A stretch of DNA of 64,000 nt from a virus, in the IMG/VR virus record IMGVR_UViG_3300028844_008248; one strand, written 5' to 3'. This document shows positions 11,380 through 43,595 of the stretch, one piece after another. The first letter of the stretch is position 1. Each line of letters begins with the position of its first letter. Under the pieces are notes generated by a model. It searched no databases and had not been told where the DNA came from. It saw only the letters and a list, made by a program, of their open reading frames with translations. The translations under genes were made by a program, and so were the position numbers.

Positions 11380-11386
11380 AAGTAAA

Positions 11387-11413
11387 GTATACCAGAGTTT
11401 TATTCGATGTCAA
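11387..11413 (-). promoter_or_regulatory. Early promoter TTGACA-N15-TATACT (minus)
   Basis: agtataccagagttttattcgatgtcaa. Confidence 0.65.
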
Positions 11414-15973: not shown

Positions 15974-16064
15974 CTTCTATATCCAGTACAATATGATCAG
16001 CAACCATATCAGAGGAATACATATAATCCAGAATAGCGGAACCACAAAGCGCACAATAAGTCAT
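15882..16064 (-). CDS. Small Cys-containing early protein, 60 aa
   Basis: SD GGAG upstream of ATG; downstream of promoter 16118-16145. Confidence 0.45.
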   Translation of the reverse strand: MTYCALCGSAILDYMYSSDMVADHIVLDIEGDLDYIELAHRSCAVADNNMSDRSYWEYHV

Positions 16065-16117
16065 GAGAGTTTCTCCGTGAAAATAGGTTATCTAAACAAC
16101 ATCATCAAAACAAGATC

Positions 16118-16145
16118 AGTATACCAGAATCCAAATGGATGTCAA
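16118..16145 (-). promoter_or_regulatory. Early promoter TTGACA-N16-TATACT (minus)
   Basis: agtataccagaatccaaatggatgtcaa. Confidence 0.6.
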
Positions 16146-16417
16146 GAGAAATCGTATATATCATAATCAACAACAATTTCATAGTCGTCATTATCTTCTA
16201 GTTCAAGATTTAACTGCATCTTCAAATACTTGTCACTTAATACTCGTTCTCCACAGTGGTATGCATGACAAGAAACCTTCGAATAAAAATCATATAGTTC
16301 ATTTGTTTTAATATGGGGGGTCCAACTTGGAAGTGTGGCTCGGTCTTGGTCTCGTAACATTTTGTCGTGTGCGATTGCTGTTGTATCGTAATTATATAAC
16401 ATCATCATTGCCTCCAA
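16142..16417 (-). CDS. Hypothetical early protein, 91 aa
   Basis: ORF. Confidence 0.4.
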   Translation of the reverse strand: MEAMMMLYNYDTTAIAHDKMLRDQDRATLPSWTPHIKTNELYDFYSKVSCHAYHCGERVLSDKYLKMQLNLELEDNDDYEIVVDYDIYDFS

Positions 16418-16575
16418 ATGAGTTTGAATGATTCACACTGAAGATCACGAAAGGTATCATAACCATATTTCGCAATCAACTTTTCACGGTATTCATTGTA
16501 AGAGTTATGAGTATATTCACCAATTAACAGCGTATAAAGCGTTTCGATTTCTACTTGTCGTTTAATAAACATGTT
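16408..16575 (-). CDS. Unlisted small ORF, about 55 aa (MFIKRQVEIETLYTLLIGEY…)
   Basis: Read from sequence; GAGG SD 6 nt upstream of ATG; fills gap between annotated ORFs. Confidence 0.35.
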
Positions 16576-16592
16576 GTTCCTCTCTATATATA

Positions 16593-17033
16593 TTAGACAA
16601 TTTCAAAGATATGTACGAGTTTCTTGTTACGTCCATTATAATCAGATATTACAGAAGTATTATTTTGATCAGCAACAATTCCTGATTGAACAACCTGTGC
16701 ATGGCCCGTAGTAACAACAAGATATTTCTTGTTCGGATCAGCTTCACACATAGCCCATTTTTTAAGTGTGTTATTGCGAAAGAACCAACTACGGGATTCA
16801 TGTTTGATATTGAAGTGTTTCATCAATTCCAGTAGCAAGTTCATAGAAACCGATCCTTTCCAGTTACCACGTTTGTTTCCAAGCTTTTTACATACATTCG
16901 TTACATGATTAATAGGAGTTTTCGTAATAATGGCAACAGAAGCCAAAGCACAATTTCCTTGCCCACCAAAAACTCCAAGATTTTCTTTCAACACATGCAT
17001 ATCATCAATTGCTAATGTATTTTCAACATTCAT
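16593..17033 (-). CDS. Hypothetical early protein, paralog family A (with 14009..14479)
   Basis: see 14009..14479. Confidence 0.5.
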   Translation of the reverse strand: MNVENTLAIDDMHVLKENLGVFGGQGNCALASVAIITKTPINHVTNVCKKLGNKRGNWKGSVSMNLLLELMKHFNIKHESRSWFFRNNTLKKWAMCEADPNKKYLVVTTGHAQVVQSGIVADQNNTSVISDYNGRNKKLVHIFEIV

Positions 17034-17425
17034 TATTTTTGATCTCCTTCCATTCTGAAATTAACTTGATCAGCAACAAACTTCTCATAACCAGCAACAG
17101 AAACTTCGTATCCACCATCACGCAACCATTTTTTGATACTATCAGCAACATAACCTTTGGATTTAAGAATGCCGTGAGGAGATTCACCAGCATCATATCG
17201 CTCGAAGTATTCAGCCGGAGAAAAGTTTTTGATTAGGAAAGAAAGAAATCCGGGTTTGTTGGACCTCATGTGTTTGAACCGGGCAACAAATTTGTCACCG
17301 TACATCAGATATCCACCATGATAGTTGAAGTTTTTTCGGTCAAATTTCATCGTGTTTTGATCTCCTGTAGTTGAATCGTTATCAATCATGTTCAACAAGT
17401 ATACCAGAGTTTTATTCGATGTCAA
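17033..17425 (-). CDS. Hypothetical early protein (true start probably 17350 or 17389; ORF-track N-terminus lies inside the promoter)
   Basis: Promoter -10 at 17399-17404 lies within ORF-track N-terminus; AGGAGA SD before ATG at 17350. Confidence 0.45.
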   Translation of the reverse strand: MTSNKTLVYLLNMIDNDSTTGDQNTMKFDRKNFNYHGGYLMYGDKFVARFKHMRSNKPGFLSFLIKNFSPAEYFERYDAGESPHGILKSKGYVADSIKKWLRDGGYEVSVAGYEKFVADQVNFRMEGDQK

Positions 17426-17426
17426 G
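17399..17426 (-). promoter_or_regulatory. Early promoter TTGACA-N16-TATACT (minus)
   Basis: agtataccagagttttattcgatgtcaa. Confidence 0.65.
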
Positions 17427-17624
17427 GTCTAAATCAATGCCCTGCATAATTTCTTTTTTCGTTCCACCAGAATATTTTGATCGCATATCAGAATGCTCTC
17501 TACTGGTCCATGCATTCCAGTATTTGGGTGGAACATTGTGATGACGATATATCGTAACGCCACGATAGAGATAGATGCCTGATTCGATTTTTTTAGCACT
17601 GTTTTTGTTTTTCATCATCGTCAT
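17412..17624 (-). CDS. Hypothetical early protein, 70 aa
   Basis: ORF; promoter at 17662-17689. Confidence 0.4.
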   Translation of the reverse strand: MTMMKNKNSAKKIESGIYLYRGVTIYRHHNVPPKYWNAWTSREHSDMRSKYSGGTKKEIMQGIDLDLDIE

Positions 17625-17661
17625 CTCTCATCATCCTCATCAAAAGAATTAATATGTACAT

Positions 17662-17689
17662 AGAATACCAGAATCCTAGAAGATGTCAA
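17662..17689 (-). promoter_or_regulatory. Early promoter TTGACA-N16-TATTCT (minus)
   Basis: agaataccagaatcctagaagatgtcaa. Confidence 0.5.
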
Positions 17690-17800
17690 GCAGAATCGGA
17701 GAATAATTCGGGGTTCAAAAAGTGCTACATTTTGTAGCATATTTATTTAATGGTCCAGAATAGTCGAAGTGGGTAAATGTGCTTGTTGATAGTGCATAGA

Positions 17801-17843
17801 GGAAATGACAGGAAATGACAGGTAATGACAGGTAATGACAGGA
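17801..17843. repeat. Tandem direct repeat 4 x 10 bp (aatgacagg[a/t])
   Basis: ggaaatgacaggaaatgacaggtaatgacaggtaatgacagg. Confidence 0.85.
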
Positions 17844-17897
17844 ATAGTCGAAGTTACCTATCCTTCCTCTGCAAAACCCGACTATTCTCAGAACTAC

Positions 17898-17950
17898 GCC
17901 CAAAATAACTCATAGCCCAAAATAACTCATAGCCCAAAATAACTCATCAC
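17898..17950. repeat. Tandem direct repeat 3 x 17 bp (cccaaaataactcatag)
   Basis: cccaaaataactcatagcccaaaataactcatagcccaaaataactcatcac. Confidence 0.85.
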
Positions 17951-18037
17951 GCCTAATTTAGCATATATATACCTGCTTTATCATAGATAGTCGGGTTTGT
18001 CAAGCTTTAAATGAAAGTTACGGGTGATAACTTTCAC

Positions 18038-18066
18038 TTGACACTGAACAACTCCTGTGATATACT
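18038..18066 (+). promoter_or_regulatory. Strong sigma70-type promoter on plus strand TTGACA-N17-TATACT with no downstream ORF (candidate sRNA promoter)
   Basis: cTTGACActgaacaactcctgtgaTATACT; downstream 200 nt lacks ORF, contains 15-bp inverted repeat. Confidence 0.5.
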
Positions 18067-18208
18067 GTAGGTTTATAGTTATGCATATACCAGAAACTGT
18101 GCGCTCCATTCCCATTATATATTATATATTCGAAGTTGTCAAGTGGAAATATTCGTGTAACATTAACTGTTAATGTAAATCTATGCTACGACTTAAACCT
18201 ACAGTATA
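18062..18208 (+). ncRNA. Candidate structured small RNA bounded by perfect 15-bp inverted repeat (tatactgtaggttta / taaacctacagtata)
   Basis: Transcription start predicted about 18073 from upstream promoter; IR arms 18062-18076 and 18194-18208; no ORF. Confidence 0.3.
18114..18142 (-). promoter_or_regulatory. Convergent sigma70-type promoter on minus strand TTGACA-N17-TATAAT facing the plus-strand promoter about 50 bp away
   Basis: minus strand cacTTGACAacttcgaatatataataTATAATggg. Confidence 0.5.
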
Positions 18209-18454
18209 GCACATAAAAACCATGATGTAAAGAAAATTCCGGCCTATTCTATGTGGCTTCCCTGTATGTGGTTGACCAACTCCGTAAATAACCGCACTTT
18301 GGCTCGATCAGTTTACGTGTGCTTATCTTACACTACATAGAATAGTCGGGTTTTTGGACCGCTATCAGAGACTCGAACTCTGAATTGTAACCCGGATTTA
18401 CAGAGCGTATCGATGCAAATCGTGTTATAGCGGATATTTTCACTATATTTTTAT

Positions 18455-18483
18455 ATACTATCACACATATTCGGGTTTGTCAA
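18455..18483 (-). promoter_or_regulatory. Promoter TTGACA-N17-TAGTAT (minus) firing into ORF-free region
   Basis: minus strand tcTTGACAaacccgaatatgtgtgaTAGTAT. Confidence 0.4.
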
Positions 18484-18567
18484 GAGGGTTTTTGTAAAAA
18501 CCGAATATCGTTATTCCTGCACTCTCAGCCAATATCTCCCTAGCTGAAAGTTGGTAAAAAGTCCTTA

Positions 18568-18759
18568 TCAATCCATCAAGAATAGTACTCCAGCCAAAAC
18601 ATAACCAAGCTGTCCGGTGGCTATTCCATACACAACGAGAATCCATCCTAATATATCCAAAGTCATGATTTCCTCTCTCGGTTCACCACAGAGCAAATAA
18701 GCAACGAGAATACATCCTAATATATCCCAAATCATGGTTCGAAGCTCAGATGCCCACAA
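18568..18759 (-). CDS. Small membrane protein with internal duplication, 63 aa
   Basis: Two about 30-bp direct repeats (atcctaatatatcc[c]aaa[g]tcatg) encode repeated MIWDILG / MTLDILGWIL. Confidence 0.35.
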   Translation of the reverse strand: MWASELRTMIWDILGCILVAYLLCGEPREEIMTLDILGWILVVYGIATGQLGYVLAGVLFLMD

Positions 18760-18938
18760 TTCGGGTCAAGATCACATACTTTCAATGATGTTGGTGGACA
18801 TCGGCGCAAAATATAATGTAGAGATGTTTCTTTTATTGGTATCCAGATGTCCGTACCTTTCACCTCTACATATACTTCTCTGAGATTAATAATAACAGGT
18901 AAGATTTCATCACCAACATATATAGTCGAGTTATCCAT
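18732..18938 (-). CDS. Hypothetical protein, 68 aa
   Basis: ORF. Confidence 0.3.
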   Translation of the reverse strand: MDNSTIYVGDEILPVIINLREVYVEVKGTDIWIPIKETSLHYILRRCPPTSLKVCDLDPNCGHLSFEP

Positions 18939-19127
18939 AATGTTACCACACCTCCATAGTTACAGGTCCAGTTGGCAATTTGTTCCACTGGTGCGCTACA
19001 TCAGGCCAGAGCATCAATGGCTCACCATAGTGTAAGACGCTCTCAAACCAAAAATTAGCTAGGTTAATCTGGTGTGCCAGCAAAGTAGTCGGGTTCATCT
19101 TATTAACTCCGTTTTAAAGCTCGTTTA

Positions 19128-19289
19128 TTATAGTTCAACTACGACTATGTTTGGGGAATATCCGTTCAACATCTCGTGGGCTTCGTCTTTACCGAAGTAA
19201 CCAACTAGCTTCGTACCGGACCAATGTTCAGTAACTCCAGCTTCCAACCAAGTCACTTCGTATGTTTTTCTCGGTTTTACTTTCATCAT
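19128..19289 (-). CDS. Small early protein (start trimmed to MMKVKPRK… after GGAG; ORF-track N-terminus overlaps promoter)
   Basis: Early promoter at 19328-19355; SD GGAG 7 nt before ATG at 19289. Confidence 0.45.
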   Translation of the reverse strand: MMKVKPRKTYEVTWLEAGVTEHWSGTKLVGYFGKDEAHEMLNGYSPNIVVVEL

Positions 19290-19327
19290 TCGATTAACTC
19301 CTATAAGCAATCGTTTATCATGTAACC

Positions 19328-19355
19328 AGTATACCAGAGTTTTGTCTGGTGTCAA
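19328..19355 (-). promoter_or_regulatory. Early promoter TTGACA-N16-TATACT (minus)
   Basis: agtataccagagttttgtctggtgtcaa. Confidence 0.6.
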
Positions 19356-19908
19356 GAGAAATATGTATATAAGTTTGAGCATAGATTTACATTAACAGTG
19401 AGTGTAATAACATCAGAAGATAGCTCTTGACAGATGTATAATATATGTGCTATACTGAGAGTGGAAACTGATTCTTAGATTTACAGTGAATGTTCTGGTA
19501 TATAAACATGTCACGTAAAGTACTATAAGAGATTAGTCGGGTTTTGTTTTGAAGTGAAAGTTAAGTCGTGCTAACTTTCATTTGGAGTAGACAATTCAGG
19601 ATTGAGTCGGACCTGTCATGTTGGGCTTGACTTGGAGAGAGAGCTTGCAAAGCCTAGTCGGGCTACTAGAGCCAGCATGGACACAGAGCCTAGTCGGGCT
19701 TTGCCCAAACCGGAAAAAAAACATTGGGCGAAAGTAGTCGAAGTTAGAAGCTATTTTGTAACAACTTTTTTATTAGTGTTTTATTCTGTAGGTTTTTCGG
19801 TGGGAAACTTCGAATATCTCTCTATCTACCAAATCAAATTCAACTATTCTAAAACCGGAAAATCAAAATTTTTTTCGAGCTATATTTTTAGGTTCTGAGA
19901 ACTTTACT

Positions 19909-20460
19909 TCAGTTGTTGTCTCGTAGTAGTATATCATCTTCTATCATTAATTCTATACATCTTGGACAAGTTATCCATTGAGCCATTTGTCTATACGAGA
20001 TATATGGATATTCCTCTCCATATAGTTTTCCATCTATGGTATAACACATAGAAACCAAGTCATACTTACCATCCACAGTAGTCCATGTCTTGATTCCTTT
20101 ATGATTATATTCTGGTTCTTTCACCTCTTCGTCTGTAGTATAATGATCAAAGGCTTTATTAAAATGTTCCTGTCGCAACGAGTCCAGTCTACCAGCAATA
20201 TCATTAAGTATATCGGATATTAATAAGTCATTATTATTAAGAAATATTTCAGGTATGGTAACATCTACCAGTTCACCCGAACATTTATCATATATGAATT
20301 TGATATTATGAGTCACATGGTTTTGGATATTATATAATTCATCAAACTTATCTTTTGACATGTTTTCTAATTCTTCGTTAGTGTAGTCGTCTAAAGTTTT
20401 TTCCATGATATTATGCTCCATATTTTTCACCTGTTTCAATTGTTTCCAGTGCGAGTTCAT
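19909..20460 (-). CDS. Hypothetical protein, 183 aa
   Basis: ORF. Confidence 0.5.
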   Translation of the reverse strand: MNSHWKQLKQVKNMEHNIMEKTLDDYTNEELENMSKDKFDELYNIQNHVTHNIKFIYDKCSGELVDVTIPEIFLNNNDLLISDILNDIAGRLDSLRQEHFNKAFDHYTTDEEVKEPEYNHKGIKTWTTVDGKYDLVSMCYTIDGKLYGEEYPYISYRQMAQWITCPRCIELMIEDDILLRDNN

Positions 20461-20620
20461 TTGTTAGCATCATTACGCCTAACGCTATGATCTGTTGTTT
20501 GGTCATTTCTTTTTCCTATCTTTTAGGTATATTTGAATAACGTAATTCAATTCAACCAAAAAATTACCAATGGCAAAAACTCCAATAACCAGAAGTATTT
20601 GCAAATAATGATTATCCATC

Positions 20621-20809
20621 TCACTCCTCCATTTCTCCGGTTTGCTTCCTGACTAATTCAGTTTTGCACTCAAAATTCATATCAGCATATTTCTTTATAG
20701 CTTTGGCCTCACCTATCATTTCACCAAAAGGAATTATATAAATAAAGAGCCAGCCTATAATTAGAAGGGTAAAAAACATTTGCAATATTATTTTAGATTG
20801 TTCGCTCAT
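20621..20809 (-). CDS. Small membrane protein, 62 aa
   Basis: Hydrophobic helix FFTLLIIGWLFIYIIPF. Confidence 0.4.
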   Translation of the reverse strand: MSEQSKIILQMFFTLLIIGWLFIYIIPFGEMIGEAKAIKKYADMNFECKTELVRKQTGEMEE

Positions 20810-21203
20810 CCATTTCTCCGGTTTGTTCGACTGCCTTCCAGAAGGCTATAAATTCGTTTTTGTTAATCTCACCTTTCTGATATGGCTCTAATGCTTTATC
20901 CATTTGCGCCCAATAACCTTTCCGGCGGGAATCAGTCTTCCAAGCAAACCCCCGCTTCTCCATCTCCCGCTTTCCAAGGTGCATTAGGATGGGGGCAATT
21001 CTAGTGTCATCAAATAGGTACGATTTCCATTGGTCGATATTAATAACGCCAGTAGTCGCAGGCCAAGCTAATCCTATATTTTTATTTTTCCATGCAACAG
21101 GAAAGCTCCAGTGGTCTGCACCCATCCCATAATCAGGATCAATTTCAGCATCAAAAAACTTCGCTACCTTCTCCGCAAGTTGTTTTTGTTCTGAGGGTTT
21201 CAT
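20793..21203 (-). CDS. Hypothetical protein, 136 aa
   Basis: ORF. Confidence 0.5.
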   Translation of the reverse strand: MKPSEQKQLAEKVAKFFDAEIDPDYGMGADHWSFPVAWKNKNIGLAWPATTGVINIDQWKSYLFDDTRIAPILMHLGKREMEKRGFAWKTDSRRKGYWAQMDKALEPYQKGEINKNEFIAFWKAVEQTGEMDERTI

Positions 21204-21856
21204 TATTTACCTTTAAATTTTATCTTACTTAGGTTGCTATTAATTTCAAAGTGAGCAACTTTCACTTCCAACTCCTTACCCCGCTTCTCACTAGCTTTGA
21301 GTTTTGCTTTGTATTTCAAAAGTTGTGCATCCATTGTAAGGTTTTTATCTTCTTCCTCTACATACTGTGCATTTATAAAACTCAATTCGCCTTGAGCTTC
21401 TTCAAGTTTCTGCTTGAGGTCTTTGATTTCATAAGCGTGATTAAATTTATCATCTATTAATTCATCAAATGTTTTGCGATATTTTTCCTTCAACTCCGCA
21501 TTTTCAGCTTCGAGTTTTTTTGCCTCGTTTACTTTATAGCTGTGTATGCCAATCAGATCAACAAGCTCCCCCTTCACCTTCTCCAGTTCGGCTTGGAGTT
21601 TTTCTTTTTGCTCTACTTGGAATCTTACATTGGTATCTAGCCTTCCTGCTTCCTCATACCAGTAATCCAACTTACCCTTCACCTGCTCCAGTTCAGCTTT
21701 GAAGGAGTCGATTTCTTGGTCACGCCAAGCCAACTGAATCGCTATGTCTGATTTGCTGTGCAACTTTTCAACGGTCATTGCAGAAACATGGTTAAGGTAG
21801 TGCTGGCCTAGCTCTTGCGCATCTTTTTCGGGATAATATTGATTCGTTTCACTCAT
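21203..21856 (-). CDS. Coiled-coil protein, 217 aa
   Basis: K/E/L-rich heptad-like sequence. Confidence 0.5.
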   Translation of the reverse strand: MSETNQYYPEKDAQELGQHYLNHVSAMTVEKLHSKSDIAIQLAWRDQEIDSFKAELEQVKGKLDYWYEEAGRLDTNVRFQVEQKEKLQAELEKVKGELVDLIGIHSYKVNEAKKLEAENAELKEKYRKTFDELIDDKFNHAYEIKDLKQKLEEAQGELSFINAQYVEEEDKNLTMDAQLLKYKAKLKASEKRGKELEVKVAHFEINSNLSKIKFKGK

Positions 21857-21858
21857 AA

Positions 21859-22311
21859 TTACTTATCCTCCGTTATTATTCTTCCTTTGTTATTTGTTTG
21901 GATAAATGTATTCCTTGGTAATGATGGTTCTAAGTATAAAATTCCATCAGCACAAATGGTTCCTATTATCCAATTACTCTGTAGTCTGCTACCGTCTTGA
22001 CCTATTTGTATATTAATATCTATTTCTGAATTTGATTTTCTTGGATTCAAAGACAAATACGCTTCTCTTTCATGAATATTAGGAAGCACGTGGCCATTAT
22101 GGTTTACATATAATTCTATATAATTATCATTTCTTTGCGATTCATTATCCGGGGTATTATTCAGACCATCTTTATATACAATCTGTTCTTTGGGAATGAG
22201 CATCGATTCGCCTTTATAGAAATCGATTAGCTTGGATATGACTTCCAATTGCTCTTGATCGAACTCCGATATATTTTCTTCGTACCATTCATTCAAGTAT
22301 TGAATATTCAT
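21859..22311 (-). CDS. WYEEN-module family member A (N-terminal MNIQYLNEWYEENISEFDQEQLEVISKLIDFY + variable C-terminus)
   Basis: Shared N-terminal about 35 aa with six downstream-upstream paralogs; C-terminus similar to member E (…GQDGS…). Confidence 0.55.
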   Translation of the reverse strand: MNIQYLNEWYEENISEFDQEQLEVISKLIDFYKGESMLIPKEQIVYKDGLNNTPDNESQRNDNYIELYVNHNGHVLPNIHEREAYLSLNPRKSNSEIDINIQIGQDGSRLQSNWIIGTICADGILYLEPSLPRNTFIQTNNKGRIITEDK

Positions 22312-22799
22312 TATTTTTTTCTCTCCACTGGTTTAATATATTTATTCGATGTAATAAATTTATTATCGTGTATAGCAAGCCGATGATTGATTTTTCTATA
22401 ATATTCGTAATGTTCCCGTTTTTTAAATGCCACAGGGGAGTACTTGTTCTTGTGGGATAGTTTATATCTTCGTACCATTCTCTTTATAGGTGATAATTTT
22501 ATTCTTGAATCTTTTAGTACGCAACTATCACAAGAACATCTTGATATATATTCTTTTATTTTATGTTCTATATTAATCAGATGGCGAAATGCCAATACAT
22601 GACTTCCCGTATATTTGTTCTGCCATTTCGGTTTTAATTTTACGATATATATACCATCAGTACCATCATCATTATATTTGGCAGTATTATAATCGATGTC
22701 AAGTATAATAGTTGACATAGATTTTTTTAATTCTTGGATTCGGGATTTGTTGTTGTTGATGTTGTTCATTATTTTAACCACTCCCAGACTTTCCACCAA
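22311..22799 (-). CDS. Basic protein with C-terminal RCxC..C motif, paralog of 23176..23508
   Basis: …EYISRCSCDSCVL… vs …KYIVRCFCSKCTT…. Confidence 0.5.
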   Translation of the reverse strand: MVESLGVVKIMNNINNNKSRIQELKKSMSTIILDIDYNTAKYNDDGTDGIYIVKLKPKWQNKYTGSHVLAFRHLINIEHKIKEYISRCSCDSCVLKDSRIKLSPIKRMVRRYKLSHKNKYSPVAFKKREHYEYYRKINHRLAIHDNKFITSNKYIKPVERKK

Positions 22800-23179
22800 G
22801 GAACTTCTTTTTTAATATAGTATGGTCCGGGGTATTCTCCGGGCTTGTGGGGATTTCCAAATCCCTGCTCTCTTTCTGGTCCACAATCATGAAACAATTG
22901 CCAATATTCGGGTTTTACATAACTATAGAATGCTCCTTGGGGTCGTGAGCCTACCTTCCTTGCACAAAAAAGTTCTCCAGCCATAAACATATTAGATTGA
23001 TCGAGATCATCAAATGCTTTCTGATACGCTTCCATATCTTCGTTTGGTCGGAACACTACTCCATCAGCGCAACCCCACGAAAACAAGTCGTTGGTGATTA
23101 TTTCATATTCGTCCATCTCTGCATCATAATCAACTACATCATAGTCTACTAAGTCTTGGAATGTTAGTTTTGTATTCAT
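22769..23179 (-). CDS. Hypothetical protein, 136 aa (W-rich)
   Basis: ORF. Confidence 0.45.
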   Translation of the reverse strand: MNTKLTFQDLVDYDVVDYDAEMDEYEIITNDLFSWGCADGVVFRPNEDMEAYQKAFDDLDQSNMFMAGELFCARKVGSRPQGAFYSYVKPEYWQLFHDCGPEREQGFGNPHKPGEYPGPYYIKKEVPWWKVWEWLK

Positions 23180-23508
23180 TTTATCACCTTTTGTAGTTTT
23201 ATAAATTTATAAGTTGTGGTGCATTTAGAACAAAAACATCGTACAATATATTTTGATAACAGCCTATCTAAAGTACCCAAACACAAAGATGTTATTTCAT
23301 GTTGCTCATAGTCTTTAACAGTCCATCCCATTCTTAGTTTTATTGTATGAATTGTAGTGTCTGATGTTTTATTATAAATTTCTTGCACTTTATTTCGGTG
23401 TTTGTGTTTTATATAATCTATTGATAACACAAACTTCTTCTTATGTTCCCTGTGTATTAGTCGGAACCTTTTTTCATTATCTTCATAGTCGGTGAATTTA
23501 TTTCTCAT
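23176..23508 (-). CDS. Basic protein with C-terminal RCxC..C motif, paralog of 22311..22799
   Basis: see 22311..22799. Confidence 0.5.
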   Translation of the reverse strand: MRNKFTDYEDNEKRFRLIHREHKKKFVLSIDYIKHKHRNKVQEIYNKTSDTTIHTIKLRMGWTVKDYEQHEITSLCLGTLDRLLSKYIVRCFCSKCTTTYKFIKLQKVIK

Positions 23509-23527
23509 GTTTATAATCCATAATCAC

Positions 23528-23797
23528 TTACCCGATATCAAATATATCATAATCATCAACTTTTTGTCTGTACTTGGATGCTCTTATACATTTTACTCTG
23601 CCACGACTCATAGTGCGTATTTTAATGAATTTATAATAACGAACTCGACCATGTACCCGGCCTCGTGAATATTTATTTTTTGGACTTTTTCTCCCAGCCA
23701 TCAATTTCAATTTATTTTTTGGGATTTTTTGGGATTTTTTTCCATTTTGATCAATAGAAAATATGACAGACGGTTCAACTATTAATTCCATTGTCAT
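23528..23797 (-). CDS. Highly basic small protein, 89 aa
   Basis: R/K-rich; DNA contains tandem ttttttgggatttttt repeat. Confidence 0.4.
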   Translation of the reverse strand: MTMELIVEPSVIFSIDQNGKKSQKIPKNKLKLMAGRKSPKNKYSRGRVHGRVRYYKFIKIRTMSRGRVKCIRASKYRQKVDDYDIFDIG

Positions 23798-24303
23798 TAT
23801 ATTTCACAAAAAAATGAATGGATTAAAATAACTACAGCAACTATTCCATATATAACGAATACCCAATATATAGGAACCATAGAAGTAACAAAAATGAATA
23901 AAATACTATTGATAATAAATATAGGTATTAACCCAAACAATATTACTCCAAGCCCTTGTCCGATGTAATCTAAACGCTCTTTCTTAAAATTGCTTGGTCT
24001 AAATTGATCGATGATTTCTTTGAATGTTTTTTTAATTCCACCCATAACACTTTGGTATATAGATTCGGAGTGGTTTTCTATTCTTCTGTCATCATAAGAA
24101 ACCAACTCGTTATATTTATTAATATATTTTGCTTTTTCTTTTTCCAATTTCTTAATATATTTTTTGAGATTTTTGGTATTACATTGTTCTTTTGATAACT
24201 GAATAAGATAGTCAATTATCTCTATAGAATCAGAGTCTAATTCGAGAATAAACGAATCATACCACTCTTCTATTTCTTTATATGTTGGCTCTTTATTAAA
24301 CAT
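23797..24303 (-). CDS. WYEEN-module family member B with C-terminal double transmembrane segment
   Basis: N-terminal …YKEIEEWYDSFILELDSDSIEIIDYLIQL…; C-terminal hydrophobic helices. Confidence 0.55.
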   Translation of the reverse strand: MFNKEPTYKEIEEWYDSFILELDSDSIEIIDYLIQLSKEQCNTKNLKKYIKKLEKEKAKYINKYNELVSYDDRRIENHSESIYQSVMGGIKKTFKEIIDQFRPSNFKKERLDYIGQGLGVILFGLIPIFIINSILFIFVTSMVPIYWVFVIYGIVAVVILIHSFFCEI

Positions 24304-24366
24304 TATTATTCTCCTATTACTTTCAATACATTGTATAAAAAATTCTTTATTATGGATTCCCCCATA

Positions 24367-24954
24367 TCACAATTTATTGATTCTTTTTCTGGTATTTCTT
24401 TTGATTTTCTTTTCTTCACATTTTTTAATTCTCTCAAGTTCGGTTTCAATAGCAATAGTTTGTATCCGTTCCTCATATTCCCTTTTTTCCTGCCAGAGTT
24501 CTTTCTCAAGTTCTTCTTTGAGTAATCTATCTCTATCCCTTTCTTCTCGAATAACAATATCTTGCCAAGACTCATTACCTAGATGGGAAGAAGAATAATT
24601 AAGAAATCCTAAATGAGAAATCTGTTTACGATCATGATATTCGTTGTCTATTGAACTAACAACACCTCTATAAAAATCATCAACAACAGCTAATTTCTCG
24701 TGAATATTTTTATCCCCAATATTTTGTTTGTTATAAAACTCAAATGAAAGTTGTTGTAAGGTCTCCCCCAAACGTTTGATCATGTATTGATCTTTTTTTT
24801 GCTCAGACCTCATAGTTTTTATATCGTTTTCATCTTTAGTTGATATAAAATTTTGTTTAGCCAGTTCAAAAATTTTATCTAAGTGAGTTGTATTTTGTGC
24901 ATCTAGATCAAGAATAATATCTTCGTACCACTCTTCAATATCAGAAATATTCAT
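24367..24954 (-). CDS. WYEEN-module family member C with coiled-coil/charged C-terminus
   Basis: MNISDIEEWYEDIILDLDAQNTTHLDKIFELAKQNF…. Confidence 0.55.
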   Translation of the reverse strand: MNISDIEEWYEDIILDLDAQNTTHLDKIFELAKQNFISTKDENDIKTMRSEQKKDQYMIKRLGETLQQLSFEFYNKQNIGDKNIHEKLAVVDDFYRGVVSSIDNEYHDRKQISHLGFLNYSSSHLGNESWQDIVIREERDRDRLLKEELEKELWQEKREYEERIQTIAIETELERIKKCEEKKIKRNTRKRINKL

Positions 24955-25364
24955 TTTCGATTCTCCGTTTCTAATGCTTTCTCTACTTGTATAATTGCCC
25001 GATCCAATTTATGGTCTGGTATGATGGCAGTTCCCCCATACAATCTTTTGAAAGTTTTTATTGTTTGAGCATTACATAAATTCAATCGCTCTACTAAAAT
25101 TTTTCTCTTGTCAGATGAACTAGTTTCTTTATCTATTTTCAGATCAACAAGACGAACATTTTCTTCTTCTAGTACTTTTATAATCTTCTTTAGATTTCTG
25201 TTTTCCCCTTTAAGGTCTTCTAAATTTGGTATTTTATTGTTGGTGAATCCAATAAAGTACTCCTTAGCAGTATCCACTAAAAAATCAATGACCTCGATTT
25301 GTTCTGCATCAAACTCTGGTAAATTTTCTTCATACCAGATATCTAAATCTTCTATAGTTTTCAT
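24951..25364 (-). CDS. WYEEN-module family member D
   Basis: MKTIEDLDIWYEENLPEFDAEQIEVIDFLVDTAKEYF…; ATGA overlap with neighbours. Confidence 0.55.
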   Translation of the reverse strand: MKTIEDLDIWYEENLPEFDAEQIEVIDFLVDTAKEYFIGFTNNKIPNLEDLKGENRNLKKIIKVLEEENVRLVDLKIDKETSSSDKRKILVERLNLCNAQTIKTFKRLYGGTAIIPDHKLDRAIIQVEKALETENRK

Positions 25365-25900
25365 TCCATATTACCAATTCCAACAAACCATGATGGTTTA
25401 TCTAATCTTAGCGTTTTCTGATTTAAGTTATTTCCTGAACGACTAGAATCTCTAATCAAGATGGTGTTATTGTTACTAATGCTTATCGGAGCATGTGTGC
25501 CATTTGAATATTTAGATTGGTCTGTAAATTCAAAACTACCATCTTGATATATTCTTCCTATAGCAACTGTTACCGCCGGACTAGAAATTCCAAATTCAAT
25601 AAAAGATTTGTCTGGACATATATGATCATTACTAACATAAAATACCGGGTGAAAAATATCAGGAGCCTGTTCTGTTTTAGCTAAAGATGCAGAGATAAAT
25701 TTATCAATAGGAATTTTTTTTGCAAAGCATTCAGTATTTTCCTGAAAAAAGTTATCCGCATATTCCAATTTAGCATCAACTTCCGGTCCTATATAATTCG
25801 TCTTATAATTCTCTACAAGATGGTTTATCATGTCAACTTGGTCTACATCAAATTCTGATAAATTTTCGTTATACCATTTATTTAATTGATTAATATCCAT
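25361..25900 (-). CDS. WYEEN-module family member E
   Basis: MDINQLNKWYNENLSEFDVDQVDMINHLVENYKTNY…. Confidence 0.55.
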   Translation of the reverse strand: MDINQLNKWYNENLSEFDVDQVDMINHLVENYKTNYIGPEVDAKLEYADNFFQENTECFAKKIPIDKFISASLAKTEQAPDIFHPVFYVSNDHICPDKSFIEFGISSPAVTVAIGRIYQDGSFEFTDQSKYSNGTHAPISISNNNTILIRDSSRSGNNLNQKTLRLDKPSWFVGIGNME

Positions 25901-25987
25901 TATAATATCCTATGCACTGGTGCCTGTTTTTGGTTTTATGGCCTATATGACCGTTACAGAGCCTCATATGGTGTCTTGTTGATCCCA

Positions 25988-26422
25988 CTAGAACGGAGAA
26001 TCTTCATCGTCATCTTCATCAGCTTCCGATCTACCAGAAAATTCGAACATTCGTTCATCCAACATACACGTTGGTTTTTTTGGTTTATTCGGAGTTAGTG
26101 GAATAACATTTTCGGGTTCTCCCATCAAATCACATAATTTATTGTTAATATGGATTCTATCCGACTCAATTTCATACGACATTTTCCGTAACAAATATTG
26201 AATAGATTTTTCCATGTTAATAAATTCTTTTTTGATATTGGCTTGTTTTTCCACTACATCTTTTTTGATATAGTCGAATGTGTCTTCTCTTGATTCTGTA
26301 TTATCTTCCGATTCAATCGGAGGATTATAATTTTCTACCAATTTTTCAATTATGATAGATTGTTCTTGATCGAAATCACCAATAGCCTCTTCATACCACG
26401 CTTGAACTTGTTTTTTATTCAT
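25988..26422 (-). CDS. WYEEN-module family member F (acidic C-terminal tail)
   Basis: MNKKQVQAWYEEAIGDFDQEQSIIIEKLVENYNPP…. Confidence 0.55.
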   Translation of the reverse strand: MNKKQVQAWYEEAIGDFDQEQSIIIEKLVENYNPPIESEDNTESREDTFDYIKKDVVEKQANIKKEFINMEKSIQYLLRKMSYEIESDRIHINNKLCDLMGEPENVIPLTPNKPKKPTCMLDERMFEFSGRSEADEDDDEDSPF

Positions 26423-26431
26423 GATAAAATC

Positions 26432-26998
26432 CTATTTAGTTTTCAAGTTTTTAATTCTATAGGTTCCCGATACACATTCAAGAGATTTTTTACCGGGAAT
26501 TGCTGAGTCAGCACTATATTTGTATAAATCTAAACCAACCTCTTCTACCTCATTACCCTTGCGTACATCACACCCCAACCCCGGAACTTCGGTTGTTTCT
26601 GTAATTATAGGTTCTCTCGATCCCAAATATATAGGCACCAACGAAACAATAATTAAAATTATAATAAAAATAGTATTCAAATTAGTAAAAAACCAACCCC
26701 CCAAAGTGATTTTAAAAGTGGTTTTTCGGGGAGTACTTATAGTTTGAGTATTTAAGTTGTGCAATAATTCATGTACTTCGGTTCTTAAATCTATATTCGA
26801 TAATACCACACTCCTAAGTTCAATTTTTAATTGTTCGTTTTCTTCTTCAGCATGTTCCATTCGTATTTTAATATCACCAATGTTATTTACAAGATAATTT
26901 TCTTTTAAAACTTCAATTATTTCAGCTTGGTTCTGATCAAATTCCCCAATATTTTCTTCATACCAAGAATTTAACTCAGTGTTGTTTAGATTATTCAT
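26432..26998 (-). CDS. WYEEN-module family member G with central transmembrane helix
   Basis: …LNSWYEENIGEFDQNQAEIIEVLKENY…; TM GGWFFTNLNTIFIIILIIVSLVPIYLG. Confidence 0.55.
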   Translation of the reverse strand: MNNLNNTELNSWYEENIGEFDQNQAEIIEVLKENYLVNNIGDIKIRMEHAEEENEQLKIELRSVVLSNIDLRTEVHELLHNLNTQTISTPRKTTFKITLGGWFFTNLNTIFIIILIIVSLVPIYLGSREPIITETTEVPGLGCDVRKGNEVEEVGLDLYKYSADSAIPGKKSLECVSGTYRIKNLKTK

Positions 26999-27009
26999 AG
27001 TGATACTTT

Positions 27010-27186
27010 CTATTTAGTTTTATTTTGATAAAATTCCAAGGAACATTTTGCACTACAAAACACAATATCAATTTCTTGTGTTTTGACACCTTCTACAAAT
27101 AAGGAAGTGTGATAGAGTGGTTTGTGGTTTTCTTTTTCATGTTCCCTCATAGTTATTTTATCAGTCCCGCATATTTGACAATTCAT
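27010..27186 (-). CDS. Unlisted small CxxC protein, about 58 aa (MNCQICGTDKITMREH…CSAKCSLEFY…)
   Basis: Read from sequence; SD GGAG 8 nt upstream; first gene after early promoter 27201-27228. Confidence 0.4.
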   Translation of the reverse strand: MNCQICGTDKITMREHEKENHKPLYHTSLFVEGVKTQEIDIVFCSAKCSLEFYQNKTK

Positions 27187-27200
27187 TTATTTCTCCAGTT

Positions 27201-27228
27201 ATTATATGACATATATAGATTTTGTCAA
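27201..27228 (-). promoter_or_regulatory. Early promoter TTGACA-N16-TATAAT (minus) heading the WYEEN-family operon
   Basis: attatatgacatatatagattttgtcaa. Confidence 0.55.
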
Positions 27229-27620
27229 GTATTTTTTTCGTACTTGGCTTTTAGTCGTTCATATTCGAGAAGGTCTCGTTTCTCTTTTTTCTCTTTTCGC
27301 TTTGCATCTGATTTTTTCTTGGCAATTTTTGCAGAACGATTTCTTTTCATTCTAGTAGCCAATTCTTCGTCTGTTTCTTCTCTGTTATAAAAGACGTTGA
27401 ATGCACCTACTCCATCATCATAATTATATTCGGTAAAATAATCTAATGTAGAATCTTCCCCATATGTTTTACGGATGTCTTGTATTAATATAATAATTTC
27501 ATTAAGTGATTTTCCATCAAAGAGAGAATAACAAGTTCCTAAATATTTACTCTCTTTAATTATTTTCTTTTTCATAATCTTCACCTTTTGTTTTTGTATA
27601 TCCATGATTAAAAATATCAA
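27225..27620 (-). CDS. Hypothetical protein with basic C-terminus, 131 aa
   Basis: ORF. Confidence 0.45.
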   Translation of the reverse strand: MIFLIMDIQKQKVKIMKKKIIKESKYLGTCYSLFDGKSLNEIIILIQDIRKTYGEDSTLDYFTEYNYDDGVGAFNVFYNREETDEELATRMKRNRSAKIAKKKSDAKRKEKKEKRDLLEYERLKAKYEKNT

Positions 27621-27813
27621 AATAGTTATTAATCAATACGAACTCTTCATCATCAATATTTTTAATAATTACCCGGTTGTCTGCATAGTGTGGACTATAA
27701 TAGGTTTTACCTTCTAGCTGGATTTTTTCAAAATCCTCTTTTACTGCATCCATTCTTTCGACAGTTGGATTTTCTACAATCCACACTCCATTTTTATTTT
27801 CTGTTTTTTCCAT
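27556..27813 (-). CDS. Hypothetical protein, 85 aa
   Basis: ORF. Confidence 0.4.
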   Translation of the reverse strand: MEKTENKNGVWIVENPTVERMDAVKEDFEKIQLEGKTYYSPHYADNRVIIKNIDDEEFVLINNYFDIFNHGYTKTKGEDYEKENN

Positions 27814-27828
27814 TATAGATTCCTTTCG

Positions 27829-28398
27829 TTACCACGAAGTTTTAGAGTAAGCATTTTTATATGGGTTATATTCTTCTTCATCATCATCAGGTTCTTCTTT
27901 TTCAATTTCCACTATCGTATCAGTTTCTTCAACGATATTGAGTGATTTTTTTATATCCTCCCCAGAGATAGTGTTTACTTGTTTTGTAAATGATTCAGTA
28001 TGATTTTCGTCCGGTTCCGGCTGATGTTCATGTTTTGGGGGAGCATGTTCATCATGCATTTTTTGAATTTCATTGTGATATGATTGTGGAATCTTATCAT
28101 AAAATTCCGAAAATTCATCTTCAAATAATTCCCAAGTACAAATCTTAGCGAAATTTTTGTATGAAACTTTCTCCCAACATATATTATCAATATTCCATAA
28201 CTCAATACCATCATCATGTATTAAACTTTCTACGGAAAGTTTTCTATCTCCAAGTGGTATAAACGGGTCTTCACACAACGTAAGAATATTATTCTTTGCA
28301 TTCAACCTGAAACTGTCTAGAAAATGTTTCAGGTTATCATACAATATTTCTTTTGGTGATGGATTACTATAATTTTTTCTAACAGGAAATTTAATCAT
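27829..28398 (-). CDS. Hypothetical protein with acidic C-terminal tail, 189 aa
   Basis: ORF. Confidence 0.5.
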   Translation of the reverse strand: MIKFPVRKNYSNPSPKEILYDNLKHFLDSFRLNAKNNILTLCEDPFIPLGDRKLSVESLIHDDGIELWNIDNICWEKVSYKNFAKICTWELFEDEFSEFYDKIPQSYHNEIQKMHDEHAPPKHEHQPEPDENHTESFTKQVNTISGEDIKKSLNIVEETDTIVEIEKEEPDDDEEEYNPYKNAYSKTSW

Positions 28399-28709: not shown

Positions 28710-29459
28710 TTAGAGTTTCTCCGTTTGGGAAATGTGAAATACCGTTACCATCTTACGACCAGTCTTGATTTTTTCATCTCCATTTTCATCAAGCTTTTTG
28801 GTTTTGAAGTACGTTCCGATCTTAACACCCTTCTCACCTTTTTTAACGATGCGATCAAATTTATGTTTCCAGATATTGAAAGTAAAAACATCTTCTCTCG
28901 GAGTAGCTTCGATCCCTCGATTTTCAAAAGCGGAAATTACGATGTTATCATTTTCTTCCGACATATTCATTCTGGCTTTAACAAAAGAATCTTCTGCTTC
29001 AACTTTTTTTGCTTTGGTACTTTCAGAAACTTTTTTCGGAGCAGATTTTTTCTTTGCTTTGGCAACTGGTTTCTTTTTCTCTACCATCTTGTAAGGTTTG
29101 TTCCAATCACCAATTTTCAGGCTGTAGTAAAATGCACAATGGAAATAATCGGTCATGGAATCAGATTCATCCCAATGCTCTTTTGCAATGATATCAATCA
29201 TCTTTCTAAGTTTGTCTTGATGAGAATGGGGAAGAATATTTTCACCAGCATGATTAGTAACAACATTGTCAGTTTCAAACCAATGCTGATTTACTTCACG
29301 ATGATCTTTTCCGTTCAACTCAAAATCATACGGGCTTTCTAAAATCGTTACATGCACCCACGAATGGTTTTCGTTTCGAACTGAAAATTTGACTTCGGGG
29401 AAAGCTTTTTTCAGATTGTTTCGAATAACTCTAACTTCATCAGCACTAATATAAGCCAT
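28710..29459 (-). CDS. Hypothetical protein, 249 aa (Lys-rich central linker)
   Basis: ORF; early promoter 29513-29540. Confidence 0.5.
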   Translation of the reverse strand: MAYISADEVRVIRNNLKKAFPEVKFSVRNENHSWVHVTILESPYDFELNGKDHREVNQHWFETDNVVTNHAGENILPHSHQDKLRKMIDIIAKEHWDESDSMTDYFHCAFYYSLKIGDWNKPYKMVEKKKPVAKAKKKSAPKKVSESTKAKKVEAEDSFVKARMNMSEENDNIVISAFENRGIEATPREDVFTFNIWKHKFDRIVKKGEKGVKIGTYFKTKKLDENGDEKIKTGRKMVTVFHISQTEKL

Positions 29460-29512: not shown

Positions 29513-29540
29513 AGTATATCATATAATATTGCATTGTCAA
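29513..29540 (-). promoter_or_regulatory. Early promoter TTGACA-N16-TATACT (minus)
   Basis: agtatatcatataatattgcattgtcaa. Confidence 0.6.
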
Positions 29541-29610: not shown

Positions 29611-30204
29611 ATGTCGATTTTTACCAATATTAAAGAACTCGCTTCGAAACGGGGTATAAGCTTCCAGAAAAATGCTCGACAAGCCAAAACATGGTTTGCC
29701 AATAAAGCTAAATCTTTAGGAGGGAATATATCCGGTTCTAGGTTAATGTCTCAGACCAGAACCAGACAAGTTGGACGAAGACCGGATAGGGGAAACATGG
29801 TTCATTTTGTATATGATCCAAAGACCAAAAAACAGCTTCCGTTCTATGACAAATTTCCGTTGATATTTATTGTCGAAGTATATAAAGATGGCTTCTTAGG
29901 AATTAATCTACATTATTTACCACCCGGACTTCGATTAAAATTACTAGAAAAATTAACATCATTACAAACAAATAAAAAGTACGATGATCGAACAAAATTG
30001 CGTTTGTCATATCGTGTATTAACTGCAACAAGCAGGTTCAAAGAATTTCAACCAACTATCAAACGATATTTAACTTCACACGTAAGAAGTAGATTTTTAA
30101 AAATAGATGCTAACGAATGGCATATGGCGATTTTCTTACCCACTTCAAATTTTGCAAAAGCATCAAACCGTACCGTATGGAATGATTCAAGGAGAAAGAT
30201 ATAG
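29611..30204 (+). CDS. Late structural-module protein, 197 aa (basic), hypothetical
   Basis: First ORF after late promoter. Confidence 0.5.
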   Translation: MSIFTNIKELASKRGISFQKNARQAKTWFANKAKSLGGNISGSRLMSQTRTRQVGRRPDRGNMVHFVYDPKTKKQLPFYDKFPLIFIVEVYKDGFLGINLHYLPPGLRLKLLEKLTSLQTNKKYDDRTKLRLSYRVLTATSRFKEFQPTIKRYLTSHVRSRFLKIDANEWHMAIFLPTSNFAKASNRTVWNDSRRKI

Positions 30205-30783: not shown

Positions 30784-31494
30784 ATGTTACCACAATTACA
30801 ACACCCAACTTATAAAATTAAGTTACCATCCAATAACAAAGAAATAAAATTTAGACCGTTCTTAGTTGGAGAAGAAAAAATATTACTAATGGCTATGGAA
30901 AGTAACAACCCAAATGAAGTTGTTACTGCGATAGAACAAATTATTAGAGCGTGTGTTATTACTGATATTGATGTATCAGATATGCCGATCCTCGATGCTG
31001 AATATTTTTTCCTTCACCTACGGGCTAAGAGTAAGGGCGAAGTTTTAGAATTAAAATACATGTGTACACATTGCGATAAACCGATTGAATTTGATTTGAA
31101 TATCGAAGATGTAAAAATTAAGAAGAATAAAAAACATAATAAAAAAATTCCTATTGAAGGTGATATAGGAATGGTTATGAAATATCCAACATTACAATTA
31201 GGAAATATGATCACAGAAGATAGTGATGATGTAAACAAAGTTGAACTTCAATTTAATATGATTAAATCTTGTATAGATTATGTATATGATAAAGAAGAAC
31301 TTCATTACTTTAAGGATCAAACCGCCGAAGAAATAGACCAGTTCATAAATAATCTTCCAGAGAAACCTATAGTAGAAGCTACTAATTTTCTAAATACCAT
31401 ACCAGAAGTTGTGTATAAAGATGAATTAATATGTTCTCATTGTTCTTTGAAAAACGATATAGTGATTAAAGGACTACAAAATTTTTTCGGATAA
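30784..31494 (+). CDS. Late structural-module protein with two CxxC pairs (possible baseplate hub assembly protein), 236 aa
   Basis: CTHCDKP … CSHCS. Confidence 0.5.
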   Translation: MLPQLQHPTYKIKLPSNNKEIKFRPFLVGEEKILLMAMESNNPNEVVTAIEQIIRACVITDIDVSDMPILDAEYFFLHLRAKSKGEVLELKYMCTHCDKPIEFDLNIEDVKIKKNKKHNKKIPIEGDIGMVMKYPTLQLGNMITEDSDDVNKVELQFNMIKSCIDYVYDKEELHYFKDQTAEEIDQFINNLPEKPIVEATNFLNTIPEVVYKDELICSHCSLKNDIVIKGLQNFFG

Positions 31495-42551: not shown

Positions 42552-42588
42552 GTTTTTATCTCCTGAATCATTGTTTATCATGTAACCA

Positions 42589-42616
42589 GTATACCAGAGT
42601 TTTATTCGATGTCAAG
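42589..42616 (-). promoter_or_regulatory. Early promoter TTGACA-N16-TATACT (minus)
   Basis: agtataccagagttttattcgatgtcaa. Confidence 0.65.
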
Positions 42617-43234: not shown

Positions 43235-43530
43235 TGTTTATTTTCGGGTATGTAAAAGAAGGTGGGACGTTCTGTTTCTAGGTGTCCCAAGCCCAAGGCA
43301 ACTTTACGCCGCCAATGCTAGATCGTAATCATTTGCATTTATAATCTGATAGATTTTTTACTAGGCCAACTATCATCCTAGTGCTGTCTTAAAGATTATT
43401 ATATCCAATCGAATCCAGTTCGCCCCCATGAAAAAAGTGTATTGCACTTCTCGTTTTGATTATTATCCAATTTCGACATGTCAGAATAATAAACTAGATG
43501 GGGTTTCAACCATGAACAATACACTCTTAT

Positions 43531-43560: not shown

Positions 43561-43595
43561 TTAAATACTTTCGTCAATAAGATTATACAGCAATA

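Follow-up and report, generated by a model that had tools for sequence, protein, structure and literature searches.

A tandem family of small phage proteins with a shared acidic N-terminal module, predicted to form a helical hairpin, in an uncultured marine T4-like phage

In T4-type phages, the "hyperplastic" early regions abound in ORFans, and what most of these do in host takeover or counter-defense is obscure. PeSL-type mobile early-promoter cassettes were reportedly described in such regions by Arbiol et al. in 2010. Polymorphic toxin and effector systems include phage MuF-toxin fusions, and adaptor families of the F-box and BTB types have been expanded in large viruses. The internal proteins of T-even phages are diverse and have only a conserved N-terminal capsid targeting sequence in common (PMC3012670). 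This work describes seven genes located between positions 21859 and 27228 of IMG/VR virus record IMGVR_UViG_3300028844_008248, which was analyzed as one stretch of 64,000 nucleotides (referred to here as the window). The genes constitute a lineage-specific multigene family in an early region of small open reading frames (ORFs). All seven encode proteins with a homologous N-terminal module of ~33 residues, joined in each case to a different C-terminus; the module is a new, undescribed small domain of generic fold. The members are labeled A to G:

26432..26998, minus strand: member G, 188 amino acids (aa), with its module at 26885-26983, a coiled-coil-like stretch, and one transmembrane (TM) segment at residues 97-132
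25988..26422, minus strand: member F, 144 aa, with its module at 26318-26416, an acidic linker, a PNKPKKP patch, and an acidic tail
25361..25900, minus strand: member E, 179 aa, with its module at 25796-25894, a third helix, and a beta-rich C-terminal domain
24951..25364, minus strand: member D, 137 aa, with its module at 25257-25355 and a coiled-coil or helical C-terminus
24367..24954, minus strand: member C, 195 aa, with a divergent module at 24850-24948 and a helical, highly charged C-terminus
23797..24303, minus strand: member B, 168 aa, with a divergent module at 24184-24282, a coiled-coil-like stretch, and then a hydrophobic C-terminal block
21859..22311, minus strand: member A, 150 aa, with its module at 22207-22305 and a low-confidence beta-rich C-terminus ending NNKGRIITEDK

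The original prediction, made from the sequence by eye, placed seven consecutive minus-strand genes with homologous N-termini in this stretch. All seven ORFs are present and their homology holds (leave-one-out E values of 1e-7 to 1e-14), but they are not consecutive, as four ORFs without the module separate A from B-G. In the leave-one-out test, a profile built from six of the N-termini was used to score the seventh, with E values scaled to the window's 998 six-frame ORFs. The resulting values were 2.6e-14 for A, 1.9e-7 for B, 1.5e-7 for C, 5.3e-14 for D, 2.3e-13 for E, 2.3e-11 for F, and 1.7e-11 for G. No eighth ORF within the 64 kb scores better than E ~1, whether the profile is based on the seven members or on an alignment of 25 sequences. 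The ORF at 21203-21856, which carries an internal "WYEE," was rejected as a member (profile E = 1.2).

Alignment of the seven N-termini using MAFFT gave an ungapped block of ~33 residues in which a Trp (W), a Tyr (Y), and the Asp of an "FD" pair are invariant. The signature of the seven members is [LI]xxWY[ED][ED]N[ILV]x[ED][FL]Dx[ED]QxxxIxxL[IV][ED], and the 25-sequence alignment extends it to [LI]-x-x-W-Y-[ED]-[ED]-N-[ILV]-x-[ED]-[FL]-D-x-[ED]-Q-x-[ED]-x-[IL]-[ED]-x-L-[IV]-[ED]-x-[YA]-K. In the larger alignment, the hydrophobic positions have a helical, a/d-like spacing. Acidic residues account for at least 88% of the sequences at W+3, W+7, and W+17 and for the majority at W+2, W+11, W+14, and W+21, and the 33-residue core has a net charge of -4 to -11. 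The core begins 2 to 14 residues past the initiating Met, and the residues ahead of it are variable. With the exception of one protein retrieved by database searching (P0021, discussed below), the module is situated at or near the extreme N-terminus of every member.

At the codon level, the 33-codon core was compared between pairs of paralogues, which have a mean amino acid identity of 36%. Codon positions 1 and 2 are identical in 61% of cases and position 3 in 37%, a value taken to be near random for DNA of 30% GC (an assumed baseline, not a computed one); where a core residue is identical, the same codon is used in only 57%. The module is conserved by purifying selection on the protein, not on the DNA. 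The saturated-looking synonymous sites therefore point to old duplications with constraint on the protein, and the modules show no trace of recent gene conversion.

For structure prediction, AlphaFold2 was run on E and A with the family alignment, a check that the original prediction had proposed. Both models contain a two-helix hairpin, with a first helix at residues 3-16, a two-residue turn at the F-D pair, and a second helix at 19-32/35. The predicted local distance difference test (pLDDT) values of the hairpin are 87-94 in E and 90-96 in A. In these models, the hairpin core would be formed by W, Y, I/L, F, I, and L, the conserved Asp would act as an N-cap, and the conserved D/E positions would line one face. 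Beyond the module, E is modeled with strands at 84-125 at moderate pLDDT (~75-83), and the C-terminus of A is of low confidence. Scans of the seven proteins and their neighbors with Pfam, PHROGs, NCBIfam, and PADLOC assigned nothing to the module; the best curated-family matches over it are sub-threshold coiled-coil noise. Structure comparison of the module gave no fold match. A CTPR match in the PDB (E = 2.8e-5) was rejected as the sum of four sub-threshold repeat matches, and a DsrC/TusE-like identity was rejected because the alignment to 2v4j_C (E = 0.1) covers 26 residues only. The impression that the module belonged to no recognizable family thus survives comparison with each of these resources.

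Searches beyond this phage, likewise suggested at the outset, showed that the module is conserved in other contigs. An exhaustive HMMER search of 1.84 billion cluster representatives retrieved 21 proteins at E <= 0.001, including five of the window's proteins and two close relatives of E and F. Approximately 12 of the 21 are further small members (104-241 aa) that likewise start, or nearly start, with the module and then differ in their C-termini. Among the remaining matches, P0018 was rejected as a leucine-rich repeat protein and P0019 (3001 aa, matched in seven short repeated stretches) was set aside as a false positive. In P0021, the module lies near the C-terminus, for which a miscalled start is our guess. 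A word-indexed search of 5.8 billion proteins gave no match with the module profile and family members only with the full-length profile. No family members were found in two scans of IMG/VR or in GTDB (one genome per species), and a tblastn search of GenBank phages with the consensus module returned nothing better than E = 2. A search of JGI metagenome contigs yielded three fragments, all from the window's own phage. The family is rare: its known members all lie on phage-like contigs of uncultured origin, recovered from a few metagenomes.

In the contigs that were retrieved (designated L003 to L014), the genes are clustered. Scanning with the 25-sequence profile revealed that every contig with one member and sufficient flanks holds several: five within 5.2 kb in L004, four in L006, three in L013, and two each in L003, L010, and L011, with L014 also among the contigs carrying clusters of 2-5 module genes. 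In L011, the module genes are found among gp55-like, UvsY, UvsW, dUTPase, and gp47-like/gp46-like genes; these T4-type neighbors indicate that related carriers are also T4-type phages. Two other neighbors were observed in these contigs: a GHL15 glycoside-hydrolase-like gene (L004, 29-1144) immediately upstream of the five-member cluster, and a 98-aa ORF between module genes (L013, 2127-2423) that combines a lipoprotein-like signal (LFTGC) with an extremely basic tail rich in Tyr, Arg, and His.

Comparison of the C-termini showed that four members have orthologues in other phages. By BLASTP, the C-terminus of B is 22% identical to its orthologue in L004 (4098-4610, same architecture), that of D is 64% identical to its orthologue in the same contig, that of E is 39% identical to its orthologue in L003, and that of F is 27-56% identical to its orthologues in L003, L006, and L013. 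Positional and architectural counterparts of A (P0008) and C (P0017) are present in L004. In all nine orthologue pairs (9/9), identity is higher over the module (0.42-0.67) than over the C-terminus (0.20-0.62). Because the C-termini of B, D, E, and F are kept with their own orthologues across phages, the family consists of old, individually conserved paralogue lineages, not of recently shuffled cassettes. The original view of the array as a constant module joined to unrelated payloads is therefore right as to architecture but does not extend to freely exchanged C-termini. Between members, the C-termini were thought to diverge completely. BLASTP gave no similarity in general, the one exception being a weak coiled-coil-type match between B and D (E = 1e-3), and hhalign gave a marginal match between A and E (E = 0.03), whose C-termini may be distantly related. 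The description of some C-termini as Gly/Ser-rich proved inapt for A and E, which are predicted to be beta-rich. Outside the window, P0010, P0013, P0015, and P0020 carry C-terminal G-W motifs reminiscent of bacterial SH3 domains; an SH3b assignment is below the Pfam threshold, with only P0010 matching SH3_6 (17 bits against a cutoff of 27, E = 0.004).

The expected single and double TM C-termini were both recovered. In addition to the one span of G, the hydrophobic block of B (residues 111-168, 58 residues) has space for two. The Kyte-Doolittle mean over 19 residues reaches 2.7 in B and G, and the other five members are soluble. Reading of the sequences shows K/R residues ahead of the first span in both B and G and, in G, acidic residues after it. 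Based on the positive-inside rule, B and G should be membrane-anchored in an N-in topology, with the module (and coiled coil) in the cytoplasm. The TM segment of G is followed by a C-terminal domain of ~55 aa with 2 Cys, predicted to lie outside the cytoplasm. Member C ends in the basic tail KKIKRNTRKRINKL.

The C-terminus of F is of a different kind. It ends DEDDDEDSPF (C-terminal peptide EADEDDDEDSPF), and its orthologue in L003 (417-842) ends NDDEIPF. Like the tip of SSB (single-stranded DNA-binding protein), F terminates in an acidic peptide closing on (I/S)-P-F. PMC5872125 describes the SSB tip, DDDIPF, as conserved and as mediating SSB interactions with other proteins. Of the window's 301 ORFs with 60 aa or more, F alone has a PF end or an acidic tail closed by an aromatic residue. 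The tail may thus mimic the tip and bind those host proteins that interact with SSB.

Several further features lie between or directly upstream of the seven genes:

22311-22769 (or -22799), minus strand: ORF without the module, between A and B
22769-23179, minus strand: ORF without the module, between A and B
23176-23508, minus strand: ORF without the module, between A and B
23528-23797, minus strand: ORF without the module, between A and B
27010-27186, minus strand: zinc-finger-like ORF of 58 aa (CxxC...FCSAKCS), heading the array between the promoter and G
27228..27201, minus strand: promoter TTGACA-16-TATAAT, 12/12 to consensus, its -35 hexamer overlapping the stop codon of the upstream ORF
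28710-29459, minus strand: stand-alone LPD29 protein ("large polyvalent protein associated domain 29," E = 1.8e-11)
29540..29513, minus strand: second promoter, TTGACA-N16-TATACT, ahead of the LPD29 gene and able to read into the array

The ORFs at 22311-22769 and 23176-23508 are themselves a second, unrelated paralogue pair inside the array (BLASTP E = 1e-7); they have a C-terminal Y[IV]xRCxCxxC motif in common and belong to no known family. The proposed ATGA overlaps, which would couple translation, were confirmed for E/D (25361-25364) and D/C (24951-24954), and TAATG overlaps occur at 22311 and at 23797. The E-F spacer (25901-25987) has a folding z-score of 0.01, with no sign of an RNA element.

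The zinc-finger-like ORF is a co-conserved neighbor of the family. The order of zinc-finger-like ORF, F-type member, and then more members is kept in the window, L003, L006, and L013, and homologues of the ORF are found directly upstream of module genes at 120-302 in L003, 1200-1397 in L006, and 1231-1422 in L013. In L003, a consensus promoter (76-103) is also retained before the ORF, followed by F. The ORF has no Pfam family, a word-indexed protein search with it returned only itself, and tblastn against cultured relatives gave no match. We regard it as a candidate for the family's partner or regulator.

A single early promoter at 27201-27228 had been proposed for the whole block. The promoter is real and matches the consensus at 12/12 positions; it is not the only one, given the second site at 29540..29513, and the zinc-finger-like ORF stands between it and G. 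Perfect TTGACA/TATAAT promoters number 4 in the window against 0.19 expected. For the pattern TTGACA-N15-18-TATAMT, 17 sites are present against 0.30 expected, 14 of them on the minus strand and two upstream of the array. Several copies have an identical 16-nt spacer, TTGACATCGAATAAAACTCTGGTATACT. Examples of sites away from the array are 11386-11413, 17398-17425, and 42588-42615. No terminator-like site was found on the minus strand between 29000 and 20500. The pattern is evidently this phage's class of sigma70-type promoters, and in T4-type phages such promoters are the early ones. Copies of the late consensus TATAAATA are located ahead of gp2 (29562, plus strand) and in the vicinity of gp48; from 9.8 to 34 kb the minus strand has none, and no member is preceded by one. 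Given the sigma70-type promoters upstream and no consensus late motif, early expression of the array is likely, as judged from the DNA. Promoter-like sites are also dense nearby: the region from 16000 to 21500 holds 31 against 22 expected, six of them at 11-12/12, and within ~17600-19900, where ORFs are few, strong sigma70-like promoters are clustered on both strands.

Our preferred reading, which we put a little short of an even chance, is that the array encodes an early accessory family in which the acidic hairpin is a common cytoplasmic handle for protein-protein interaction and the C-termini supply varied functions. On its own, a two-helix hairpin whose hydrophobic stripe is conserved would normally need a partner surface, and the conserved acidic face suggests selection on a binding surface, beyond folding alone. 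The tail of F, kept in one orthologue, means that at least one C-terminus resembles a peptide that binds host factors. The binding role, early timing, and biological function that we infer would run as follows. Host sigma70 RNA polymerase would co-transcribe the seven genes from the promoters at 29540 and 27228, with translational coupling of several of them. The hairpin might then dock all members on one shared, probably basic partner, for which a host protein and the co-conserved zinc-finger protein are candidates; alternatively, the hairpins might join members as homo- or hetero-oligomers through a four-helix bundle. The C-termini would provide different activities or locations: inner-membrane anchors in B and G, coiled coils in C and D, beta domains in A and E, and the SSB-tail-like acidic peptide in F. 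Rapid C-terminal evolution would fit accessory functions in host takeover or counter-defense. Quite unlikely, in our estimate, is the stronger proposal that the hairpin is a hub-docking adaptor like the F-box and BTB modules, with members plugging into one host or phage machine and C-termini recruiting, sequestering, or relocating host factors. Examples would be SSB-interacting replication and repair enzymes, reached through the tail of F, and membrane sites, reached through B and G.

Several points weigh against the interaction-handle reading. The partner of the hairpin is hypothetical, the evidence for timing consists of promoter sequence, and one relaxed late-like motif, AATAAATA, is situated 34 nt upstream of A. 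The family comes only from a handful of metagenomic contigs. In addition, the hints of similarity between B and D (E = 1e-3) and between A and E (hhalign E = 0.03) mean that the C-termini could simply have diverged past recognition and not be distinct "payloads."

That last point leads to the view of the family as ordinary diverged paralogues, in which an ancestral small protein was duplicated, the hairpin is its slowest-evolving folding nucleus, and there is neither adaptor logic nor a common partner; the C-termini would then be the same region diverged, or would have been replaced by de novo AT-rich sequence. We consider this view unlikely, although it accounts for a good deal: even orthologous C-termini have changed quickly (A 20%, B 22%, C 31% identity), the residual B-D and A-E similarity remains (the latter over "IG.I..DG...N.G.I"), most members run on after the module as a helix or coiled coil, and the saturated third codon positions make the duplications old. 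It sits less well with C-termini that differ in class (TM, beta, acidic tail, and SH3b-like in P0010 and P0013) and in length (95-241 aa), with each type kept with its own orthologues across phages, or with the specific conservation of surface acidic positions that a folding nucleus does not need. If instead the conservation were to serve the nucleic acid, as a translation-initiation or regulatory RNA element or as a substrate for gene conversion, the tight packing and coupling of the genes would be apt, as would the repeated promoter cassettes, which show that repeated regulatory DNA exists in this genome. This account is effectively refuted by the codon comparison above, in which position 3 is less conserved than positions 1 and 2. 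The upstream leaders also differ among members. Nor is the module an artifact of acidic, AT-rich coding sequence. Its high content of E, D, N, and I is what one expects of an AT-rich genome, but the leave-one-out values fall as low as 1e-14 when none of the other 991 ORFs is below E ~1, the W, Y, and D are invariant in a fixed register, and the search of 1.84 billion proteins gave essentially only N-terminal matches in similar small proteins. A compositional origin, which the original prediction had named as one outcome that would undo it, is refuted.

The capsid-targeting logic of T4 internal proteins, to which the array had originally been likened, would have the module bind the scaffolding core and thereby bring the proteins into the head; the prohead protease would then cut it off, and the mature proteins would be injected along with the DNA. 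The precedent of diverse proteins with one shared N-terminal sequence (PMC3012670) speaks for it, as do the position of the array 2.4 kb from gp2, gp3-like, and gp53 genes (T4 ipI is near genes 3 and 2), an [ILV]-x-E at W+5 to W+7 in many members that resembles the T4 protease motif, and the gene for an LPD29 "polyvalent protein" domain in the same block. We nevertheless hold it to be very unlikely. The would-be P1 residue (W+7) is E in 15/25 sequences, D in 9/25, and A in 1/25, and the analogy is disfavored because this putative protease-site residue is not a conserved Glu. The W, Y, and D and 20 further conserved residues flank the site on both sides, as expected of a folded domain, with strong conservation running on for 20 positions past it. 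No similarity was found to the T4 IPI leader MKTFKEF...ITE (ipI translated from NC_000866), which the leaders of IPII and IPIII resemble. The minus strand of the block lacks TATAAATA and its promoters are of the sigma70 type, the TM segments of B and G do not suit small soluble proteins fit for packaging and ejection, and the module genes of L011 sit among gp55-like, UvsY, UvsW, and gp47-like genes.

The source of the window is an uncultured, divergent marine T4-like myophage. Even in the best cultured relatives, which are Pelagibacter phages HTVC008M and Mosig, Methylophilales phage Melnitz, and Stenotrophomonas phage DLP_6, gp6 is only 38-39% identical to that of the window, and a megablast search of 21000-28000 against GenBank phages gave no match and thus no near-identical DNA. 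The same phage is also present in SRR5204266 and in JGI 3300004097, and its longest recorded contig is 76,061 bp. The window has ~33% GC, with most genes on the minus strand, and it encodes six transfer RNAs (tRNAs) in addition to the genes below:

637-2415: gp6 baseplate wedge, T4-type gene
29611-30204: gp2 DNA end protector, T4-type gene
30784-31494: gp53, T4-type gene
33816-34727: gp32, T4-type gene
within the window: gp48-like tail cap, T4-type gene
37885-39123, minus strand: full-length RtcB RNA ligase (E = 1e-130)
43253-43644, minus strand: transfer-messenger RNA (tmRNA; Rfam beta_tmRNA 96.6 bits, tmRNA_permuted 112.6 bits)
45561-46823, minus strand: SPFH/Band 7 protein
56247-58187, minus strand: class II (B12-type) ribonucleotide reductase

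ARAGORN reads the tag peptide of the tmRNA as ANDYDLALAA. For Melnitz, a close cultured relative, a paper is said to discuss tmRNA, and the parallel hints at a betaproteobacterial-type host. Together, RtcB and the scattered tRNAs suggest a capacity for tRNA repair. The LPD29 gene is the first of the minus-strand block and is divergent from the late gp2 gene; matches to LPD29 and gp2 in cultured relatives are too distant to find a syntenic locus.

As a foothold in early regions of this kind, the family offers a modular architecture with a clean, searchable signature, seven members in one phage, and clusters in relatives. If the hairpin has a single partner, that partner would give a cellular target for the whole ORFan family at once, along with a new interaction domain. 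Hub docking, if true, would represent a previously unknown modular system for host takeover or counter-defense in marine T4-like phages. If the module is instead a capsid-targeting signal, the internal-protein principle of T4 would hold for distantly related marine phages as well, and these would gain a packaging tag. The value of the family is limited by its rarity and by having no cultured host-phage pair.

Among known systems, the T4 internal proteins IPI, IPII, and IPIII and the polymorphic ip loci resemble the array in combining small, dissimilar proteins with one conserved N-terminal segment, in a T4-type genome and at a locus near the gene 2/3/53 cluster. However, the T4 leader comprises ~10-19 residues directly after the Met and is cleaved at [LI]xE, whereas the module of the window is a predicted folded hairpin of 33 residues, found in an early promoter context without a late motif and in two membrane members. 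Polymorphic toxins, the other analogy originally drawn, likewise have a constant N-terminal part and variable C-termini in tandem cassettes. The window family departs from them in having small, partly membrane or coiled-coil C-termini on paralogues that are old and not recently recombined, and no toxin, immunity, or trafficking domain was detectable in it with Pfam or PADLOC, so this analogy was not borne out. Bacterial SSB C-terminal tips and the acidic tails of phage SSBs share with F an acidic tail with a terminal Pro-Phe; F differs in having no OB fold or ssDNA-binding domain, and the F-type orthologues of L006 and L013 do not have the tail. Should hub docking hold, the F-box and BTB adaptors would be comparable in their short helical N-terminal module, many target-binding domains, and multigene expansion, although the window's module has no sequence or fold relationship to them and the analogy is functional speculation. 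The locus resembles PeSL-type regions in that its small ORFs are interspersed with an early promoter cassette present many times over (17 copies, several with identical spacers), a setting where novel ORFs build up in T4-type phages; the PeSL concept covers the movement of ORFs but does not explain a shared protein module. In all, the principle of joining variable C-termini to a constant N-terminus is not without precedent in phage hyperplastic regions; what is new in this locus is the module itself, the clustering of its genes, and their conserved synteny.

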